A stretch of 43,036 nucleotides of DNA from a virus (Duplodnaviria > Heunggongvirae > Uroviricota > Caudoviricetes). This document shows, piece after piece, positions 23,582 to 36,005 of this stretch (the first letter of the stretch is position 1; each line of letters starts with the position of its first letter). The DNA is taken from positions 1 through 43,036 of IMG/VR virus record IMGVR_UViG_2671180804_000003, one strand, 5' to 3'. The translations under genes were made by a program, and so were the position numbers. The notes beneath the pieces are model-generated. The model made no database searches. It saw nothing but the letters and a program-made list of their open reading frames with translations, and had not been told where the DNA came from.

Positions 23582-24634
23582 TTATTCCCCTGTTAACGCC
23601 CTTATTTCCTCCACCGTCTGGCTAAACCTGTCCTCCTCGAGTTCAACGCCGATAGCCTGGCGGCCAAGTTCCAGCGCGATTTTCACGGTCGAACCGGACC
23701 CCATAAAGAAATCAGCCACCACATCACTAGGCTTACTGCTGGCGTTGATGATCTGCCGCAACATGTCAGCGGGTTTTTCGCATGGGTGTTTACCTGGGTA
23801 AAACTGAACGGGTTTATGTGTCCAGACGTCGGTATAAGGAACGGATACGGAAACAGAGAAATGCCGCCGAAGCGATTTGTACTCTTCGAGCAGCTCTGAA
23901 TACTTGCGATTTAACGAATGCCACATAGCCACCAGCTGGTGGTGTGGTGTTGCCAGTTCGCCGTTCTGGTGCTTTTCGATGGCTACCTGCGTGAAAAGGG
24001 ACTGAAGATTCCGGTAGTCTGATTCATTCGGTAATTGCCACTGGCTACCGCTGAACCAGTGAGACACCATGTTCTTCTTTCCAGTCGCATCGGCTATTTG
24101 TTTTGAGGTTATGCCAAGCGCTTCACGTGCATCCCGGAAATAAGAAATTAGGGGAGTCATTACATGCTGCTTCAGCTCGCTTCCCTTCTCCGCGTAACCG
24201 TCGCTCTTTGGTTTATACGGCCCCTGGTAATGCTCAGCGAAGAGGATGCGCTCTGTTGCAGGGAAGTAAGAGCGCAGACTCTCTTTATTACAGCCATTCC
24301 AGCGGCCCGACGGTTTAGCCCAGATGATGTGGTTCAGGACGTTGAACCGCTCACGCATCATGATCTCAATGTCTGCCGCCAGGCGGTGACCGGAGAAAAG
24401 ATAAAGACTGCCAGCAGGTTTAAGCACTCGCCAGAATTGTGCGAGGCACATATCAAGCCAGCGAAGATAATCCTCATCCCCTTTCCACTGATTGTCCCAG
24501 CCGTTGGGTTTCACTTTGAAGTACGGCGGATCCGTGACTATCAGGTCAATGGAGTTATCAGGGAGAGTGGCGATGTATTGCAGGCTATCAGCGTTGACTA
24601 ACTCAACACTGTTTATATTTACAGTATTTTTCAT
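23582..24634 (-). CDS. DNA methyltransferase, beta-class amino-MTase (N6-adenine or N4-cytosine)
   Basis: DPPY motif near N-terminus (LIVTDPPYF) and FxGxG (FFMGSGST) near C-terminus. Confidence 0.85.
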   Translation of the reverse strand: MKNTVNINSVELVNADSLQYIATLPDNSIDLIVTDPPYFKVKPNGWDNQWKGDEDYLRWLDMCLAQFWRVLKPAGSLYLFSGHRLAADIEIMMRERFNVLNHIIWAKPSGRWNGCNKESLRSYFPATERILFAEHYQGPYKPKSDGYAEKGSELKQHVMTPLISYFRDAREALGITSKQIADATGKKNMVSHWFSGSQWQLPNESDYRNLQSLFTQVAIEKHQNGELATPHHQLVAMWHSLNRKYSELLEEYKSLRRHFSVSVSVPYTDVWTHKPVQFYPGKHPCEKPADMLRQIINASSKPSDVVADFFMGSGSTVKIALELGRQAIGVELEEDRFSQTVEEIRALTGE

Positions 24635-24803: not shown

Positions 24804-24826
24804 AAAAAAACCCCGCTTAAGCGAGG
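24804..24826 (-). terminator. Rho-independent terminator ending the two-gene cassette
   Basis: Forward AAAAAAACCCCGCTTAAGCGAGG; on minus strand a GC stem followed by T7, about 20 bp after stop of 24844-25248. Confidence 0.5.
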
Positions 24827-24843
24827 TTATTTCGAATAGATAA

Positions 24844-25248
24844 TCAAGCAGCAGGTTCGGATGGATAAACCTGCTCATACATCTGCTGAAGGGTGTCAAT
24901 AGCTTTGTTAGCCATTATCAATATAGCTTCCGCATCAGCCTTACTTAAAGTTCTATCAAGCTCGTAATCTGCCCATTTACGTCGGGTATGCAAATGTCTC
25001 AGCATTGTTCCCATAGAAATGAGTTTCATTTTTTCAAACGGCTCATTTCCTTTTAACCATGCATCATTTGTAAGATAGTCGCGAACAGCTTGGTGTGACG
25101 ACTTGTTTGGGCATTTCTCAAGCTTATCAAGCGTTTCATGATAAACTCCATAATACGCTCGACCAATGGCGTTTCTGTAACCGATTTCATCGTTGTGAGA
25201 AATGCATTTACCAGCAAAAACAATAAAATCTTTCCCCGATACGCTCAT
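24844..25248 (-). CDS. HEPN-like small protein (putative RNase-type toxin/effector)
   Basis: 134 aa; RAYYGVYH (R-x6-H) in a predicted first helix plus RRKWADYE, resembling HEPN hallmarks; AT-rich; start overlaps upstream stop (ATGA). Confidence 0.5.
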   Translation of the reverse strand: MSVSGKDFIVFAGKCISHNDEIGYRNAIGRAYYGVYHETLDKLEKCPNKSSHQAVRDYLTNDAWLKGNEPFEKMKLISMGTMLRHLHTRRKWADYELDRTLSKADAEAILIMANKAIDTLQQMYEQVYPSEPAA

Positions 25249-26003
25249 CAGTAAATCCCTCTTTTTTCATCGCTTTGAAACCAGGATGTAAAAGGGCTGT
25301 TCCGATAACTATCATCTGAGAGCAAAACCAACAGTTCCATGTTCATTTCAGCTAAAACCTGCGGATCAGCAGTTTGGGCTCTAACGATGAATGCATTGTC
25401 ATCATCTCCACCAAGATAATAGCTAACACTTGAACAGTTAATACCGCGCTTGTTCGCAATCTCTTCAGCTTGATCGCAAAGGGCTTCTAGTTCTCGAGAA
25501 GAAAGACGGGTAGCGTTTTTGAAATCAACAATCTGTTCAGCCATATAATTTCCCTGATTGATTATATCCTCTCGCTCTTGGCCATCATAAAGAGCAGCCA
25601 TTTTGAGGGAGAACTTTTTAACCAACTTGTCGTTGCCGATACAAAATGCAGCGTTTCTTGCTACAAGCCTCAGTTCATGTGAAGGGAAAAGCTCAACTAT
25701 TCTAAACAACTCAACGCGATGCTCATAGTTATGAGCCGAACGAGAAAGATACGCCAAGTAGTTTTGTGCGATCGTTGGACTCCCAGAGCTCATCGCGTCT
25801 TTGAATAAACGTACTGCATCAGAGTGACGCCCGAGAGTTCCATTAAGCCATGCATACGCATGTGCGCGCTCACTTATTGGAAGTTTAGCAATGTCGCGCT
25901 CAATTTCCGCAATAGTGTCTGTATCCGGGACTTCTCCCTTCTGGAAGTAATCGAGGATTGTTGCAAGCAGTTCTTGTTCTTTTGACTCAGGCTGTCCTGA
26001 CAT
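25248..26003 (-). CDS. Hypothetical helical protein, partner of HEPN-like gene
   Basis: About 251 aa from MSGQPESK; no recognisable catalytic motif; translationally coupled to downstream gene. Confidence 0.55.
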   Translation of the reverse strand: MSGQPESKEQELLATILDYFQKGEVPDTDTIAEIERDIAKLPISERAHAYAWLNGTLGRHSDAVRLFKDAMSSGSPTIAQNYLAYLSRSAHNYEHRVELFRIVELFPSHELRLVARNAAFCIGNDKLVKKFSLKMAALYDGQEREDIINQGNYMAEQIVDFKNATRLSSRELEALCDQAEEIANKRGINCSSVSYYLGGDDDNAFIVRAQTADPQVLAEMNMELLVLLSDDSYRNSPFTSWFQSDEKRGIY

Positions 26004-26124
26004 AATTTTCCCGAAGAAAACCAAATTCTGTATGTTTTCAATAGCTTCACTGGATAGGTTTTTATATTGCTGTCATCAGTATTGAAGCTTTTACGGGATT
26101 GTACAGGACCATCAGCGTTCTACT

Positions 26125-26228
26125 TGTGCATAAGAATTTAATAAACCTACAGACTTATCCACAGAAAAAAGAGTTATCAACAAAAAAAGTTATTCACAAC
26201 TTAACTAATAGCAAAATATTGTTGATAA
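26125..26228. promoter_or_regulatory. Cluster of DnaA-box-like 9-mers in cassette upstream region
   Basis: TTATCCACA (26155-63), TTATTCACA (26190-98), TTATGCACA on minus (26125-33), plus two TTATCAACA variants. Confidence 0.4.
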
Positions 26229-26350
26229 GCTGTGCGTAATTATCATATCCATCAAACTTACGCACATTAGAGCCTTGTGTTGCCTATCCATCGTTTTTTC
26301 CTATCAAAACGAAACGACATGCTTTTCTGCGATTAAAAAAGTATTCCGCA

Positions 26351-26378
26351 AAATTAAAAAACCCGCTCACTGGCGGGT
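26351..26378 (-). terminator. Rho-independent terminator downstream of Q-like gene (tR'-like)
   Basis: Forward AAATTAAAAAACCCGCTCACTGGCGGGTTT; on minus strand a CCCGC/GCGGG stem followed by TTTTTTAATTT. Confidence 0.55.
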
Positions 26379-26472
26379 TTATATACTGTTGGCAACATAT
26401 CAAATTAGCTTCAAATATCGCTTATTTTGTTGCATTTTGCAAGCCCAATTGAGGGAGTTAGTGAAAGTTATC

Positions 26473-27165
26473 TCACATTTCCGCCACTTTGAGTTCTTGG
26501 TACTCTTCGTACCGTGACAAAATTTCGCTTAGTGCCTGGCTGTCCATTTCTGCAAACGACGCTTTGAAAGCCGCCCAGTGGCCTGAATACACTCTGAGCC
26601 AGGTGGAACGCTCAACGCTGACCATGCGCGCCAGAGCTGCTCCAGCATACTCCTGATAGGTATCGTTATTACGCGAGGCAGCAACTTCTTGCGCCGCCAG
26701 CCAGACAAGCCCTATCAGTTTTTTAGTGACACGGCCCTGTATTTTTTTGCCGCTATGCTGACGCTGAAATTGTTCCCACACGTACTGGCACATTAACGTC
26801 TGGTACCGGAAGGTCAGGTCATACCCATAGCAATACCGCACCCATGCCTGCAAATGCTCCCCCAGACCATTCACCGACCGACGCCATGCTGAACAAGCGA
26901 ACTCCGTATCCTTAATAGGCGGTAAAGGTCGGCGACGGCTCCTTGTCTCAAGAACATAAAGCGGAGTGGCCAGAGTTTTTACAACCTTCGATCCACAACC
27001 TTCCCCACCTTCCATGACGATTTCAGGATGGTGCCGGGGGTATTTGTTCTTATCTGCTGGTGGATGCTCACTGAACGCCTGCAGCTGTCCTTTTGTCGAA
27101 CCTGATAAATCCGCCAGCGCTCGGCGCAGTTCAATCCGCGTATATTCCAGTTCTTGTAAATTCAT
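26473..27165 (-). CDS. Putative late-gene antiterminator (Q-like)
   Basis: Position immediately upstream of terminator and late genes; Cys-containing 230-aa protein; family assignment tentative. Confidence 0.45.
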   Translation of the reverse strand: MNLQELEYTRIELRRALADLSGSTKGQLQAFSEHPPADKNKYPRHHPEIVMEGGEGCGSKVVKTLATPLYVLETRSRRRPLPPIKDTEFACSAWRRSVNGLGEHLQAWVRYCYGYDLTFRYQTLMCQYVWEQFQRQHSGKKIQGRVTKKLIGLVWLAAQEVAASRNNDTYQEYAGAALARMVSVERSTWLRVYSGHWAAFKASFAEMDSQALSEILSRYEEYQELKVAEM

Positions 27166-27186
27166 TATGCTCAGCGCTCCATACAA

Positions 27187-28937: not shown

Positions 28938-28951
28938 GCTATTTCTCCATA

Positions 28952-30889
28952 TCAGGCGGCTGCACCCGCCTTTTGATTTGCACATAATTCAGGAAGATTT
29001 GCTTCTACCAGCGCACGAGCGAACGGCGGCGGTACTGCGTTACCACAGCGCGCTACCTGCTTGTCTTTGGCGTAACGATTGCCGCGATAGTCCTGATCGA
29101 TAACGTAGCCGTCAGGGAAGCCCTGCGCCTTATAAAGCTCATGCGGTTGCAGCATGCGCATTCCGATATCGACGATCTGGTACTTAACCCCCTCGATCGT
29201 CACCAGCCATTCATCCTCGCTATCACCGCAGTAGGTTTCGAGGAATGTCCGGACCTCGCCAACGTGCTGGCCACCAGCGGTAATCGTCGGCATAGGTGTA
29301 TCCATGGTCTGACCGTCGCGGCAGGTTCCGCGCAGCTTCACCAGGTGCGACGCAACTACCGCGTGGTGATCAACAGTAGTGACTGAGTGGGCAGGCTCAT
29401 CCATACCAACACCCGGCCCCGTGTAATTCCCACCATAGTGCTTCGCCAGGAACGCGCTCACCGTTGCAAACTTATTACCACCAGCAGTGACCGTGCCGAG
29501 CGGGTTATTCAGTTGAAGAACACGCGGTTCTTGCCCTGGGCGTTCGCCGTACCCCATCTGGATCAGTGTTGGAGTTACCAGCTGCGACTTACCGCCACCA
29601 CCTGCAGTAATCGTCGCACTCGGTTCGTCAGCCCTGTGCCCAACACTGGCTCCAAACTGGCGGGCGATGACCGGCGCAACCACGCACGCGCGGGACTGCT
29701 TGAGGATTGTATGAGCGGGTTTATCCAGCGGGCGCGGCTTTGCCTGGTACTCACTGCCGCCATTGCCAGCCAGGAACGGTGTCAGGGCGGCCTCAACTAC
29801 GCCAAGCGCATGCCCATTCCCGCCCGGGCGCGCCGACGTACCAGCGGTGACAGTTGGTACCGGCTCGGTCACTGGCTGCCCGGTGGCCCCGGTGCGGAAT
29901 TTAGTAAGATGCGGTACCGCCAGTGCGTAGCCATGCTTTTTAGTGATGGTCTGCAATGGCTCTAACAACGATTGCCCGCGGAAACAGTCATAACCTCCTT
30001 TCGTCGTGGTGTGGTTACACTTCACGATGAAAGGTGATGCGCTTTCGATAACAAAGCGCTGGATGCCGCGCGCGATACGTTTGAGCGTATTTTCCGCCAG
30101 CGGCTTTTTGCGGTCGAAGATGGACCGGGCCGGGATATTCCAGTCAATGCACTCCGCCGCGGTACGCCATGGCGCCAGCTTGCCGCTTTGTACTTCCAGT
30201 GATTTTGGATCCCCATGAGTCGCTTCAGGCCAATGAATCTTGCGGCCGTCACAGCGCATGACCATGAAGAAACGCTTTCTGATCGTCGGCGCGCCGTAGT
30301 CACATGCGCGCAGCTCCCGATAATCAACCTCATAACCAAGCCCGGCGATCAGCTGTTGCGCCTGCTGGCCGTGCGGCTCAATGGCAAGGAATTCACAAAC
30401 CTCAGCCAGCGCAGGGTGATTCGCCGCGATCCCCGTCGACAGCATGCCGACAAATGCCTCGAATGTTTCGCCAGCACGCTCAGGATCTGGGCGTAATTCT
30501 TCATCCAGCAGCGGGCCCCATGTCTTAAACTCTTCGACGTTCTCCAGCATCATGACGCGGGGACGTACTGCCAGCGCCCAGCGCAGGACAATCCACGCCA
30601 GCCCGCGAATCTCTTTCTTAACCGGCTTAGCGCCCTTCGCCTTGGAAAAGTGGCGGCAGTCAGGGCTAAACCAGGCCAGACCGACAGGTTTACCGCTGGT
30701 GGCTGCGCTTGGGTCAACGTCAAACACCGACTCGCAATAATGCAGCGTGTCAGGGTGATTCGTCTTATGCATCGCAATAGCGTTTTCGTCGTGGTTGATA
30801 GCGATATCCACGCTACGCCCGATCGCCAGTTCAATGCCGGTACTCGCGCCGCCGCCACCAGCAAAGTTATCAACGATAATTTCACGCAT
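28952..30889 (-). CDS. DNA (cytosine-5)-methyltransferase
   Basis: Motif I DNFAGGGG, PC motif FSPDCRHFS, ENV motif MLENVEEF; start at MREIIVDNF. Confidence 0.85.
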   Translation of the reverse strand: MREIIVDNFAGGGGASTGIELAIGRSVDIAINHDENAIAMHKTNHPDTLHYCESVFDVDPSAATSGKPVGLAWFSPDCRHFSKAKGAKPVKKEIRGLAWIVLRWALAVRPRVMMLENVEEFKTWGPLLDEELRPDPERAGETFEAFVGMLSTGIAANHPALAEVCEFLAIEPHGQQAQQLIAGLGYEVDYRELRACDYGAPTIRKRFFMVMRCDGRKIHWPEATHGDPKSLEVQSGKLAPWRTAAECIDWNIPARSIFDRKKPLAENTLKRIARGIQRFVIESASPFIVKCNHTTTKGGYDCFRGQSLLEPLQTITKKHGYALAVPHLTKFRTGATGQPVTEPVPTVTAGTSARPGGNGHALGVVEAALTPFLAGNGGSEYQAKPRPLDKPAHTILKQSRACVVAPVIARQFGASVGHRADEPSATITAGGGGKSQLVTPTLIQMGYGERPGQEPRVLQLNNPLGTVTAGGNKFATVSAFLAKHYGGNYTGPGVGMDEPAHSVTTVDHHAVVASHLVKLRGTCRDGQTMDTPMPTITAGGQHVGEVRTFLETYCGDSEDEWLVTIEGVKYQIVDIGMRMLQPHELYKAQGFPDGYVIDQDYRGNRYAKDKQVARCGNAVPPPFARALVEANLPELCANQKAGAAA

Positions 30890-32216
30890 TGACGGCCCCC
30901 TGCATGCTGTTGAAGAGACCACCAGCGGTCGTGATAATTTCACTCGTCGGCATACGTTCGAGCCACAGCTGGTTGATATTGGCTTTCAGCTTGTTCTGCT
31001 GCGAAACAGGTAGAGCGTCAGCCCCTTCAATCTGGTTAAACACCAGTCCAACCTCAAGAGGCCAAACGCGCGATTCGTTTAACGCCTTGTCCTTTGATTC
31101 CTGCGTCTCACGGACATGGGCGCGGATCCCCCGAATATTTGACCATTTGGCTTTATCCAGGCTTTCCATGGTCGCGATGAATTCACTGTGGTTAATGCCG
31201 TATTCTTTCGCAGACTCAACGGCAACCGTGCGTAACCGCTCTGACATGTCTTGTTTCACGTCATCGCTATCAAAGGGCAATGTTTCCAGCCATGCATTAA
31301 CACCCACCAGGATGCTCTCGCTGATCAGCTTTTTCGCTCTGTCGATCGTCAGCGGTGAAACATTGGTAAATTCAGGGTTTTCCAGAGAGTCGGCAGCCCA
31401 GGTATGACCAAACTTTGACTCGCTGAAGGTGTACTCGTCTTTCTTGCCGAACGCCGCGACAACACAGGCCCAAGCCTCTACACCGCTGGTTTCCAGAATG
31501 GCTTTTTGGGTTAATGGCAGTTCTGCCTCTGATTTCTCCGGCACTACCTCAGCGTCCAGCTCCGGCGCCGCATCAGTTTGCGTTCTTCCCACGGCAAATT
31601 GGGCCAGCGACATCGCAGCACGGCCTTTGGCCTCCAGGTCGGTGCGGTTGATGTAACTGAAACGCTCACCCCGCCATGTTTTGTCGAAGACCACGATAGC
31701 GCCAGCAAAAAATGCGCTGGTGGGCTGCTGCTTTTCGTCTTTCGGCACGAACCATGTAGGAAGATCGAAACCAATTCGGCCACGGATGAATGTGACGTGA
31801 TCTGCCTCTACCGGCCACCACGTTTCACTCGTCGCAGACTTAATGAGAAAAACGTACCGACCACCCTTTTCTCGCATGGCCATAGCGTGGTTAATGATGT
31901 GGGTCATTCCGGTAACGGCCTGCTTGTCGTGGTACTGAGAGCGGCTGTAAGGCGGGTTGCCAAACCCGGCACCACCGAGTTCTGCCAGCCGCTCTGACCA
32001 ATCCTGCGTCAGGGCATTATCTTCAGCCGTGTACCATGCTGGGCACTTCGCGTTGCTGTCGTCGGCAAAAAGGTCCAACACCAGAGGGCCGAACATCGCA
32101 TTGATCCCCCAAAACAACAGATCCGGAGTGCGCCATTGATCACCGACCTCTTTCAACTCGTGTGCTGGTTTTGAACGGAGTTCAGCCAGTGCACGGCAGT
32201 ATTTATTTTCCATCAT
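30882..32216 (-). CDS. Phage Dam-type N6-adenine methyltransferase with about 250-aa C-terminal extension of unknown function
   Basis: N-terminal W.TP..LF and GFGNPPYS motif typical of phage Dam family; C-terminal half unassigned. Confidence 0.65.
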   Translation of the reverse strand: MMENKYCRALAELRSKPAHELKEVGDQWRTPDLLFWGINAMFGPLVLDLFADDSNAKCPAWYTAEDNALTQDWSERLAELGGAGFGNPPYSRSQYHDKQAVTGMTHIINHAMAMREKGGRYVFLIKSATSETWWPVEADHVTFIRGRIGFDLPTWFVPKDEKQQPTSAFFAGAIVVFDKTWRGERFSYINRTDLEAKGRAAMSLAQFAVGRTQTDAAPELDAEVVPEKSEAELPLTQKAILETSGVEAWACVVAAFGKKDEYTFSESKFGHTWAADSLENPEFTNVSPLTIDRAKKLISESILVGVNAWLETLPFDSDDVKQDMSERLRTVAVESAKEYGINHSEFIATMESLDKAKWSNIRGIRAHVRETQESKDKALNESRVWPLEVGLVFNQIEGADALPVSQQNKLKANINQLWLERMPTSEIITTAGGLFNSMQGAVNA

Positions 32217-35181: not shown

Positions 35182-35297
35182 CTATAGTCATTGCATCGAA
35201 AGCGAACAGGCAGGACGCCCACGAAGTAGCCGCCGGTGGCATATGAATAACCGGATGATTCGCTGACAGAAAACTTAGGTTGGGGGTAGAGGTTTAC

Positions 35298-35663
35298 ATG
35301 AATCATTTATTCACATGCTCATTTTGCGGAGCAACCGAACTGGGAGCGATAAAGATCGTCGCAAAAGGTGGTAAGGACGAACCTGCCATCTGTTCGGAAT
35401 GCGTAGTCACATGTGTAGAAAAAATGATCCTGACTAAAAAATCAGAGGCTGAAAAACCAACCTCTGATAACGAAATAATATCAGTCGATAAAAAACTATT
35501 TAAAGAGCTTCTTCAGCTTGTCCTCAACCTTCCTGATTTCGGAAGTAAGCTGGCTGCTGTTGACATTGATAGTAGCTCCACATCGACAAGTGAAACTTTT
35601 GTTCGACTTGAGCCAAGCGATTTTCTTCTTCGTCTTAGTGCCGCACTTAGGGCATGCGGGTAA
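35298..35663 (+). CDS. Small protein with ClpX-type zinc-binding-like N-terminus
   Basis: CSFCG-x19-CSEC resembles the ClpX N-terminal zinc-binding domain; AGAGGT 4 nt upstream of ATG. Confidence 0.45.
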   Translation: MNHLFTCSFCGATELGAIKIVAKGGKDEPAICSECVVTCVEKMILTKKSEAEKPTSDNEIISVDKKLFKELLQLVLNLPDFGSKLAAVDIDSSSTSTSETFVRLEPSDFLLRLSAALRACG

Positions 35664-35693
35664 CGTAATTTCCTGGTTATCAAAAGCGCCCAT
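35496..35693 (-). CDS. Small zinc-ribbon-like protein, antisense and overlapping the 3' half of 35298-35663
   Basis: CPKCG-x17-CRCG motif; AGAGGG 6 nt upstream of second ATG. Confidence 0.3.
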   Translation of the reverse strand: MGAFDNQEITLPACPKCGTKTKKKIAWLKSNKSFTCRCGATINVNSSQLTSEIRKVEDKLKKLFK

Positions 35694-36005
35694 AAACATC
35701 CCTCTTGGTTGTGTGAGAACACCAAGATACCACCGCGCCTGATGTGGTTAAAAGCAGGCTAAAGCAATAACAAGTAACTCCCTGTTCTGGCGGCCCGGTG
35801 TTTTCCCGTGTATTTCCGGTAACCGCCAGCCTTTTTCAGGGCACAACAGAAAAGGGCATCACCGGGCGACGGGCTCATAACCCAATCCACCCGGGCAAAA
35901 AGAAAGCGGTCTCTGCAAGCCGCCGACCAATGCAGGTGCCCTTCTCTGTTGTGTATGGAGAAACTAACTTTTTAGCGTCTGTGCAGATGCGCTGAGGAAC
36001 CGAGA

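Follow-up and report, generated by a model that had tools for sequence, protein, structure and literature searches.

The initiator protein DnaA acts as a transcription factor for a few chromosomal genes tied to replication, namely dnaA, nrdAB, mioC and iraD (PMC5835720; bioRxiv 10.1101/2021.05.20.444958). The dnaA and mioC promoters are repressed by DnaA, mioC carries one consensus box with misfit boxes about 100 bp upstream, and cooperative binding of DnaA-ATP has been described at oriC as well as at the promoters of dnaA, mioC and nrd (PMC5835720), while iraD is repressed by DnaA-ATP and relieved by replication stress (bioRxiv 10.1101/2021.05.20.444958). Here I describe a dense array of DnaA boxes in a 43,036-nucleotide DNA sequence of a virus of the Caudoviricetes (IMG/VR record IMGVR_UViG_2671180804_000003, positions 1 to 43,036; hereafter the window, at its full length), which lies upstream of a mobile two-gene cassette encoding a TPR-like protein (A) and a HEPN-domain protein (B). 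My preferred reading, to which I assign a probability of roughly 55%, is that the array is bound by host DnaA and regulates the core promoter of the cassette, whose expression would follow free DnaA-ATP. What would be new is a predicted DnaA-controlled promoter with more boxes per 142 bp than oriC, located on a mobile TPR/HEPN moron.

The array comprises seven DnaA-box-like 9-mers within 142 bp. Three of these, at 26125, 26155 and 26190, match the consensus TTWTNCACA (Schaper and Messer) exactly, and the other four have one misfit; scores, where listed, refer to the binding matrix described below.

26125-26133, minus strand: b1, TTATGCACA, exact consensus, in the sense direction of the cassette; the promoter-proximal box (11.7 bits)
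26155-26163, plus strand: b2, TTATCCACA, the best box, of R1/R4 type (14.2 bits, the maximum of the matrix)
26174-26182, plus strand: b3, TTATCAACA, one misfit, A at position 6 (13.2 bits)
26190-26198, plus strand: b4, TTATTCACA, exact consensus
26220-26228, minus strand: b5, TTATCAACA, one misfit
26231-26239, minus strand: b6, TGTGCGTAA on the plus strand, box TTACGCACA, C at position 4; left arm of an inverted repeat (7.9 bits)
26258-26266, plus strand: b7, TTACGCACA, one misfit; right arm of the inverted repeat and the most distal box

The DnaA-regulated promoters (nrdAB, dnaA, mioC, iraD) resemble this locus in having R-type boxes beside or upstream of the promoter; in K-12 nrdA, for instance, two tandem boxes in sense orientation, TTATCCACA and TTATGCACT, are found upstream. 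However, one or two recognisable boxes are present there, as opposed to seven in 142 bp ahead of a promoter without a -35 on a mobile prophage cassette, and those promoters are chromosomal and of the housekeeping type, with the regulation proposed here being predicted from sequence. The array is also similar to the oligomerisation region of oriC, with its mixture of high- and lower-affinity boxes in both orientations and at close spacing, which here includes the same-orientation pair b6-b5, 2 bp apart; the flanks of the array boxes resemble those of R1, R2 and R4. Unlike oriC, the array contains neither GATC sites nor a 13-mer unwinding element, shows no consensus for IHF or Fis, and is not linked to genes of replication.

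Clusters of DnaA boxes outside origins are known from datA and DARS, with two consensus and four one-misfit boxes in datA (PMC5835720). In contrast to the array, datA and DARS2 need an IHF site between their boxes, of which a consensus search finds none here; the datA boxes are spread over ∼250 bp or more, and neither datA nor DARS has a promoter downstream to which it is tied. Among phages, the closest parallel is provided by the injection-stop (iss) regions of T5-like phages, conserved non-origin clusters of ∼8 DnaA/DnaA* boxes whose commonest variant is TTATCAACA (bioRxiv 10.1101/866236). There, however, the boxes are paired 3 bp apart within long inverted repeats, in an untranslated terminal region for which a role in the arrest of DNA injection is proposed, whereas here single boxes stand upstream of a promoter in a temperate phage; DnaA binding is putative in both cases. 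By its location, right after tR' and before the holin, the cassette corresponds to the lambdoid morons inserted between Q and the lysis genes, such as stx with its own promoter. Such morons are self-contained, and are also read through by the Q-modified late transcript (PMC7547250, PMC6266700). The cargo is nonetheless different, a TPR/HEPN pair, as is the apparent input, DnaA. For stx1 the regulatory input is Fur, and no Fur consensus is found at the array.

The initial annotation of this stretch listed three exact 9-mers and two near-matches, followed by an inverted repeat, and held the cluster to be far above chance. Every coordinate of the 9-mers and near-matches checks out in the sequence. 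Both arms of the inverted repeat are present as well, but the gap between them is 18 nt rather than 19, and the repeat is not an element separate from the boxes: both arms are one-misfit DnaA boxes in opposite orientation (TTACGCACA, with C at position 4), and I therefore count seven boxes and not five plus a repeat. Maintenance of the repeat as a hairpin, dimer operator or palindrome is rejected, as the b6 and b7 arms vary independently over the seven lineages compared below. The boxes are single, occur in both orientations at irregular spacings and show no dyad arrangement; b3 and b4 belong to a 17-nt tandem repeat, T-tracts lie between the boxes, and the region is AT-rich (GC 0.33-0.34).

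The excess over chance was assessed with dinucleotide-preserving shuffles (n = 5000) of the AT-rich 448-bp intergenic region. These contain 0.82 boxes per 448 bp on average, the largest cluster in any of them has four, and none of the 5000 reaches seven, in agreement with the original claim. Within the 43-kb window, the exact sequence TTATNCACA occurs four times (1.16 expected), three times in the array, and seven of the 39 boxes with at most one mismatch fall within its 142 bp. When the same counting rule is applied to calibration loci from E. coli K-12, the one-mismatch count per 142 bp is 4 for oriC (5 in 190 bp), 2 for datA and 2 for the nrdA promoter, against 7 for the array. The scattered one-mismatch boxes at 35242-35751 of the window were considered too; they lie mostly within an open reading frame (ORF) and form no comparable cluster. 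A small ORF in that interval, beyond the repressor gene (35280-35663, plus strand), starts with MNHLFTCSFCG and has a CxxC...CxxC spacing reminiscent of a ClpX-type zinc finger. Much denser clusters of DnaA boxes were seen on unrelated viral contigs (L070 13181-13451, L073 129-221 and L071 7408-7485), with 14 boxes in 270 bp, mostly TTATCCACA, on the 105-kb contig L070; the clusters are likely to be origins of replication, belonging to large phages or phage-plasmids.

I next scored the boxes with a frequency matrix derived from 150 sites that B. subtilis DnaA had bound in vitro (PMC4447404, Table S3), the host being E. coli here. The seven array sites obtain 14.2, 13.5, 13.2, 13.2, 11.7, 7.9 and 7.9 bits on this B. 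subtilis matrix, on which the oriC boxes obtain 14.2 (R1/R4), 12.1 (R2), 10.5 (R5M) and 7.1 (R3). All seven are therefore inside the score range of functional oriC boxes (7.1 to 14.2 bits), with b6, at 7.9 bits, close to R3. An A at position 6 is found in 45 of the 150 bound sites (PMC4447404, Table S3), which is why TTATCAACA, at 13.2 bits, ranks above R2 and R5M.

In order to determine if the boxes are conserved, loci encoding protein A homologues were taken from viral contigs and public assemblies. The array is present at the same positions in all seven lineages whose protein A is at least 73% identical to that of the window (the window itself, L014, L015, L016/L053-55, L041/42, L047 and L052), and absent from every lineage with at most 62% identity. 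The major box-bearing lineages are well separated, with only 0.31-0.52 of the four-fold degenerate sites of gene A identical between them. In the alignment of the upstream regions, the mean pairwise identity is nevertheless 0.92 at box positions 1-3 and 7-9 (0.98 without b4), as opposed to 0.67 at box positions 4-6 and 0.60 in the spacers, and seven random 9-mers placed in the same region equal the observed box conservation in about 1 of 10,000 trials (permutation p = 1e-4). By these comparisons, the box cores are under strong purifying selection.

The individual boxes differ in this respect. All lineages retain b1, b2, b3, b6 and b7 (7/7), and each has two or three exact consensus boxes; changes within boxes are mostly at position 5 (N) and position 6 (C/A). 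Box b1 is identical throughout (7/7), b2 is exact in six of seven lineages, its changes being C to A at position 5 and T to C at position 4, and b3 is TTATCAACA in six of seven. In b6 the TTA..ACA frame is invariant with variable middle positions, and b7 is TTA[CT]N[C]ACA in all seven lineages, varying independently of b6. Box b5 is semi-conserved (TTATCAACA, TTGTTAACA, TTACGCACA, TTGTTCACA or ATGTCAACA). The least conserved is b4, which is present in the window, L014 and L015 and degenerate in L041 and L047; L016 and L052 have TTATTGACA or CTCTTGACA at this position, and compensate for the change by an extra TTATCAACA ∼18 bp away. From b3 through b1 to the -10 block, there is not a single indel in any lineage despite the diverged spacers, which indicates that the helical register is constrained.

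Downstream of the array, on the cassette strand, the alignment reveals the following features.

26078-26106, minus strand: candidate core promoter, two blocks invariant in the seven lineages with a variable 7-nt spacer between them
26106-26098, minus strand: block CTGTACAAT, which holds the -10 TACAAT at 26103-26098, 94 nt from the ATG
26090-26078, minus strand: block AAGCTTCAATACT, an alternative promoter reading TGTACA-16-AATACT

In all seven lineages, the distance from box b1 to the invariant TACAAT downstream of it is exactly 21 bp; b1 would occupy approximately -41 to -33 if TACAAT is the -10, and -62 to -54 if AATACT is. TACAAT is accompanied by no -35 above 3/6 and no TGn, and a consensus scan of the cassette strand found no canonical sigma-70 promoter. 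The box-less relatives (loci L017-L039, L048 and L050) are different: 24 of the 25 have a near-invariant extended -10 promoter, GTGACA-16(TGn)-TAnAnT, 70-90 nt 5' of the ATG of gene A. The box lineage retains the -10 alone, with the -35 and TGn lost. The gain of the array coincides with the loss of this predicted factor-independent promoter, and it is mainly for this reason that I read the array as promoter control and not as a passenger. A plus-strand promoter inside the array (TTCACA-16-AATATT) is not conserved in other lineages and is probably due to chance.

What the sequence comparisons show is that the boxes exceed the number expected by chance, are conserved at a fixed spacing, are linked to the cassette, and occur in just those lineages that have lost the canonical promoter; from these observations I infer DnaA as the binder, and that its binding alters transcription. 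Host DnaA would bind the strong boxes b2, b4, b3, b5 and b1, and DnaA-ATP would then spread cooperatively to the weak boxes b6 and b7. The resulting oligomer would cover from ∼30 to ∼170 bp upstream of the -10 and, through the proximal b1, may set the activity of a core promoter that has neither -35 nor TGn, such that cassette expression in the lysogen would track free DnaA-ATP, and with it the replication and growth state of the cell. The combination of consensus boxes with conserved weaker ones would fit a response to DnaA-ATP rather than to total DnaA. As for the sign of the effect, I lean slightly towards DnaA-dependent activation at moderate DnaA-ATP, possibly with repression once the whole array is filled, because the core promoter looks crippled without a factor. 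For nrdAB, such a turn to repression has been reported. The size of the array and the dnaA, mioC and iraD precedents suggest, by analogy, a repression that would be relieved when DnaA-ATP falls.

The surroundings of the array are those of an E. coli lambdoid prophage, with transcription on the minus strand at the array; a comparison that covered a 2.1-kb segment found E. coli ECONIH4 and MSB1_9D to carry a prophage with 100% identity to the window. Gene order was established from the annotation plus ORF and Pfam checks, and reads on the minus strand DUF968, Q, putative pR', tR', array, gene A, gene B, terminator, N6/N4 methyltransferase, holin, lysozyme and lysis protein. I take the stretch to be the regulatory region in front of a moron, a self-contained unit of two genes inserted between Q/pR'/tR' and the lysis genes.

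26473-27186, minus strand: antiterminator Q (PF06323)
26359-26442 region, minus strand: putative pR', TTGCAA-17-GATATT, identified by eye (8/12 matches)
26359-26380, minus strand: tR'-like terminator downstream of Q, at the upstream edge of the array module
26289-26308, minus strand: 20-mer TTTGATAGGAAAAAACGATG between tR' and b7, with 19 of 20 positions invariant across lineages
25248-26003, minus strand: gene A, 251 amino acids, TPR-like helical repeats and a small alpha/beta C-terminal domain; no Pfam family; phrog_17809
24844-25248, minus strand: gene B, 134 amino acids, HEPN-domain protein; phrog_5176
24809-24828, minus strand: strong intrinsic terminator closing the cassette, located 16 nt past the stop of gene B; its stem of 8 bp includes 5 GC pairs, and TTTTTTT comes next

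The gene B profile matches solved HEPN proteins (9xbd and 9xbc, E = 3e-5), a PF05168 match is found in 8 of 24 gene B homologues, and there is a weak PADLOC match (PDC-M05B, E = 0.012). Based on its predicted domain, gene B probably encodes an RNase effector or toxin. No DNA-binding fold was recognised in A or B, whose folds are TPR and HEPN. The cassette possesses its own terminator, a predicted conserved -10 or full promoter in all lineages and the same slot in different phages, as a moron does, and the A-B pair is probably an uncharacterised toxin or defence moron. Three DNA methyltransferase genes are found in the prophage (23582-24634 on the minus strand, and about 28950-32216 of the window): an N6/N4 methylase directly after the cassette, which adjoins it in some relatives and not in others, a cytosine methylase whose gene bears a frameshift in the ECONIH4 annotation, and, within the early region, an N6-adenine methylase.

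In the putative pR', the CTTGCAA is invariant in four lineages, and the tR' hairpin follows after ∼35 nt; together, pR' and tR' would give rise to a short late-leader transcript that terminates after ∼50 nt, comparable to the 6S RNA of lambda and to StxS. Rfam returned only sub-threshold leader-like matches, on the terminator, with a Trp-leader-like one on the tR' hairpin. The 20-mer TTTGATAGGAAAAAACGATG is part of the same mobile module as the array, and resembles a strong Shine-Dalgarno sequence with an ATG. A small ORF or leader peptide at 26308-26289 was considered on this account and rejected, the ORF behind it being 3 to 33 codons long in the alignment and not conserved in sequence. On the other side of the array, the putative 5' untranslated region (26040-26092, minus strand) contains the conserved repeated words AAGCTTCAATA and, ∼35 nt later, GAAGCTATTGA, which form a TCAATA/TATTGA inverted pair. 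An operator or a weak hairpin is conceivable here, but the support from Alifold is weak (-4.8 kcal/mol, with no real covariation).

The array travels with the cassette. BLAST breakpoints place a mosaic junction at the tR' hairpin: the Q side is shared with phages such as Eeyore and LLS, and the cassette side, including the array, with other E. coli prophages. In copies of the cassette with different upstream sequence, from prophages and metagenomes, homology begins at the T-run of tR'. The A-B pair lies between the antiterminator and lysis genes in the loci examined, and array and cassette are found together behind three unrelated Q families (PF06323, PF06530 and PF03589), with differing replication genes; since these differ between loci, the constant partners of the array are host proteins or A and B themselves. 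Across the viral contigs, the 20-mer TTTGATAGGAAAAAACGATG and the b3-b2 pair occur only with the cassette, apart from chance coding matches and one unrelated GC-rich contig. The protein A family is small, with 13 clusters among 5.8 billion proteins, and the array is present in 12 of 5426 complete E. coli genomes. The metagenome scan gave one chance match and four contigs on which array and promoter region are the same as in the window or nearly so, and hence no further diversity, whereas blastn detected no similarity to the array in 72,556 plasmids or 50,697 deposited phage records, and scans of genome contigs for the array gave no match.

A functionless chance cluster in AT-rich spacer DNA is hardly credible. 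Region and motif are both AT-rich, and the relaxed pattern was partly defined after inspection of the sequence; but no local shuffle yields seven boxes, the spacing is fixed, and the box cores have stayed conserved across lineages whose synonymous sites are largely saturated, so that the conservation data effectively refute it. A DnaA-dependent replication origin of oriC, plasmid or phage type, whether functional or decayed, is very improbable as well. The box density is origin-like, in an AT-rich region with T-tracts between the boxes, and a remnant origin-like element was one of the two interpretations offered by the initial annotation. Nevertheless, the 448-bp intergenic region contains 0 GATC, the flanks of the array are its least conserved parts and hence offer no conserved AT-rich unwinding element, no AT-rich 13-mer is repeated, there are no iterons besides the boxes, and the array is not linked to a Rep gene. 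Phages with different replication modules share it along with the TPR/HEPN cassette, it resembles none of the plasmids or phage records searched, and its strong conservation, rather than decay, speaks against a remnant. The other interpretation offered, coupling of the cassette to host DnaA, is the one best supported by the comparative evidence.

If DnaA is the binder, the array could act on DnaA instead of on the promoter, as a sink or as a modulator of its nucleotide state of the datA/DARS type: amplified upon induction, the prophage would remove or convert DnaA, and thereby alter host initiation or the DnaA-dependent replication of phages and competitors. The density of the array (7 per 142 bp, versus 4, 2 and 2 for oriC, datA and the nrdA promoter) would suit such a role, as would the 2-bp same-orientation spacing of b6 and b5, which is that of the low-affinity arrays of oriC. 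Plasmid-borne boxes do titrate DnaA in vivo, and datA itself is composed of consensus and one-misfit boxes (PMC5835720). I consider this explanation unlikely, however, as the array is tied to the cassette and to its -10 distance rather than to the phage backbone or replication module, lacks the IHF consensus (IHF being essential for datA-dependent hydrolysis and for DARS2) as well as a Fis consensus, and, as one prophage copy, would add only 3 to the 307 consensus boxes of the chromosome (PMC5835720); nor does such a role explain why the array goes together with loss of the canonical promoter. Quite unlikely, too, is that the boxes resemble DnaA boxes by coincidence and serve as operators for another protein, of the host or encoded by the cassette, with TTA-N3-ACA (TGT-N3-TAA) as its recognition sequence. 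This would account for the strict conservation of TTA and ACA alone, with variation at consensus positions 4 and 6, and for the maintenance of b3 as the non-consensus TTATCAACA in most lineages, a sequence found again in the injection-stop region of T5, for which binding of DnaA is likewise only a proposal (bioRxiv 10.1101/866236). Yet exact DnaA consensus boxes are kept in every lineage, with three in the window, b1 does not vary, and b2 has the optimal R1/R4 sequence; the tolerance at positions 5 and 6 is DnaA-like, A at position 6 being common in DnaA-bound sites. Moreover, A and B are devoid of a DNA-binding domain, single boxes in both orientations at irregular spacings suit a monomeric binder like DnaA domain IV, and the consensus search identified no CRP, LexA or Fur site and, on both strands, no IHF (WATCARNNNNTTR) or Fis site.

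Several points weigh against control of the cassette promoter by DnaA, which I still prefer. Seven boxes far exceed the number at any known DnaA-regulated promoter, hinting at an additional or different role. Four of the seven deviate from the strict E. coli consensus, and the C at position 4 of b6 and b7 is rare, in 9 of 150 bound sites. The matrix derives from B. subtilis DnaA, and its information content relates to the observed conservation in a way that is suggestive at most (rho 0.63, p = 0.07, n = 9). The strictly conserved part, TTA-N3-ACA, could be read by another protein too. The two conserved -10 candidates, 20 bp apart, place the centre of b1 near -37 or near -58. Finally, the more distant cassettes of other Enterobacterales have no boxes at all and work without them, which implies that the array is not essential to the cassette.

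A literature search on DnaA boxes in connection with prophage antitermination regions, anti-phage defence and lambdoid late regions found no such element described. If DnaA has been recruited here, this would be the first case found in which cargo that is horizontally transferred, and probably serves in defence, is wired to the initiator of the host; if DnaA is not the binder, the conserved TTA-N3-ACA array would indicate a different regulator. A more speculative proposal, which I regard as doubtful at this stage, is that a mobile TPR-HEPN abortive-infection or toxin module has swapped its constitutive promoter for an array of DnaA boxes that exceeds oriC in density, with the host initiator as its sensor, and is switched on or off upon an abrupt change in free DnaA-ATP. 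Such a change might be triggered by an invading phage that degrades the chromosome and releases DnaA, that blocks replication, with regulatory inactivation of DnaA (RIDA) lowering DnaA-ATP, or that brings its own clusters of DnaA boxes, as T5-like phages do. A defence system would then be wired to replication initiation, with the initiator protein as its transcription factor. DnaA control of the cassette, if true, would provide a handle on how defence and toxin morons stay quiet in lysogens and on what releases them, as well as on how promoters outside the origin may be controlled by DnaA-ATP when it oligomerises on a mixture of strong and weak boxes.

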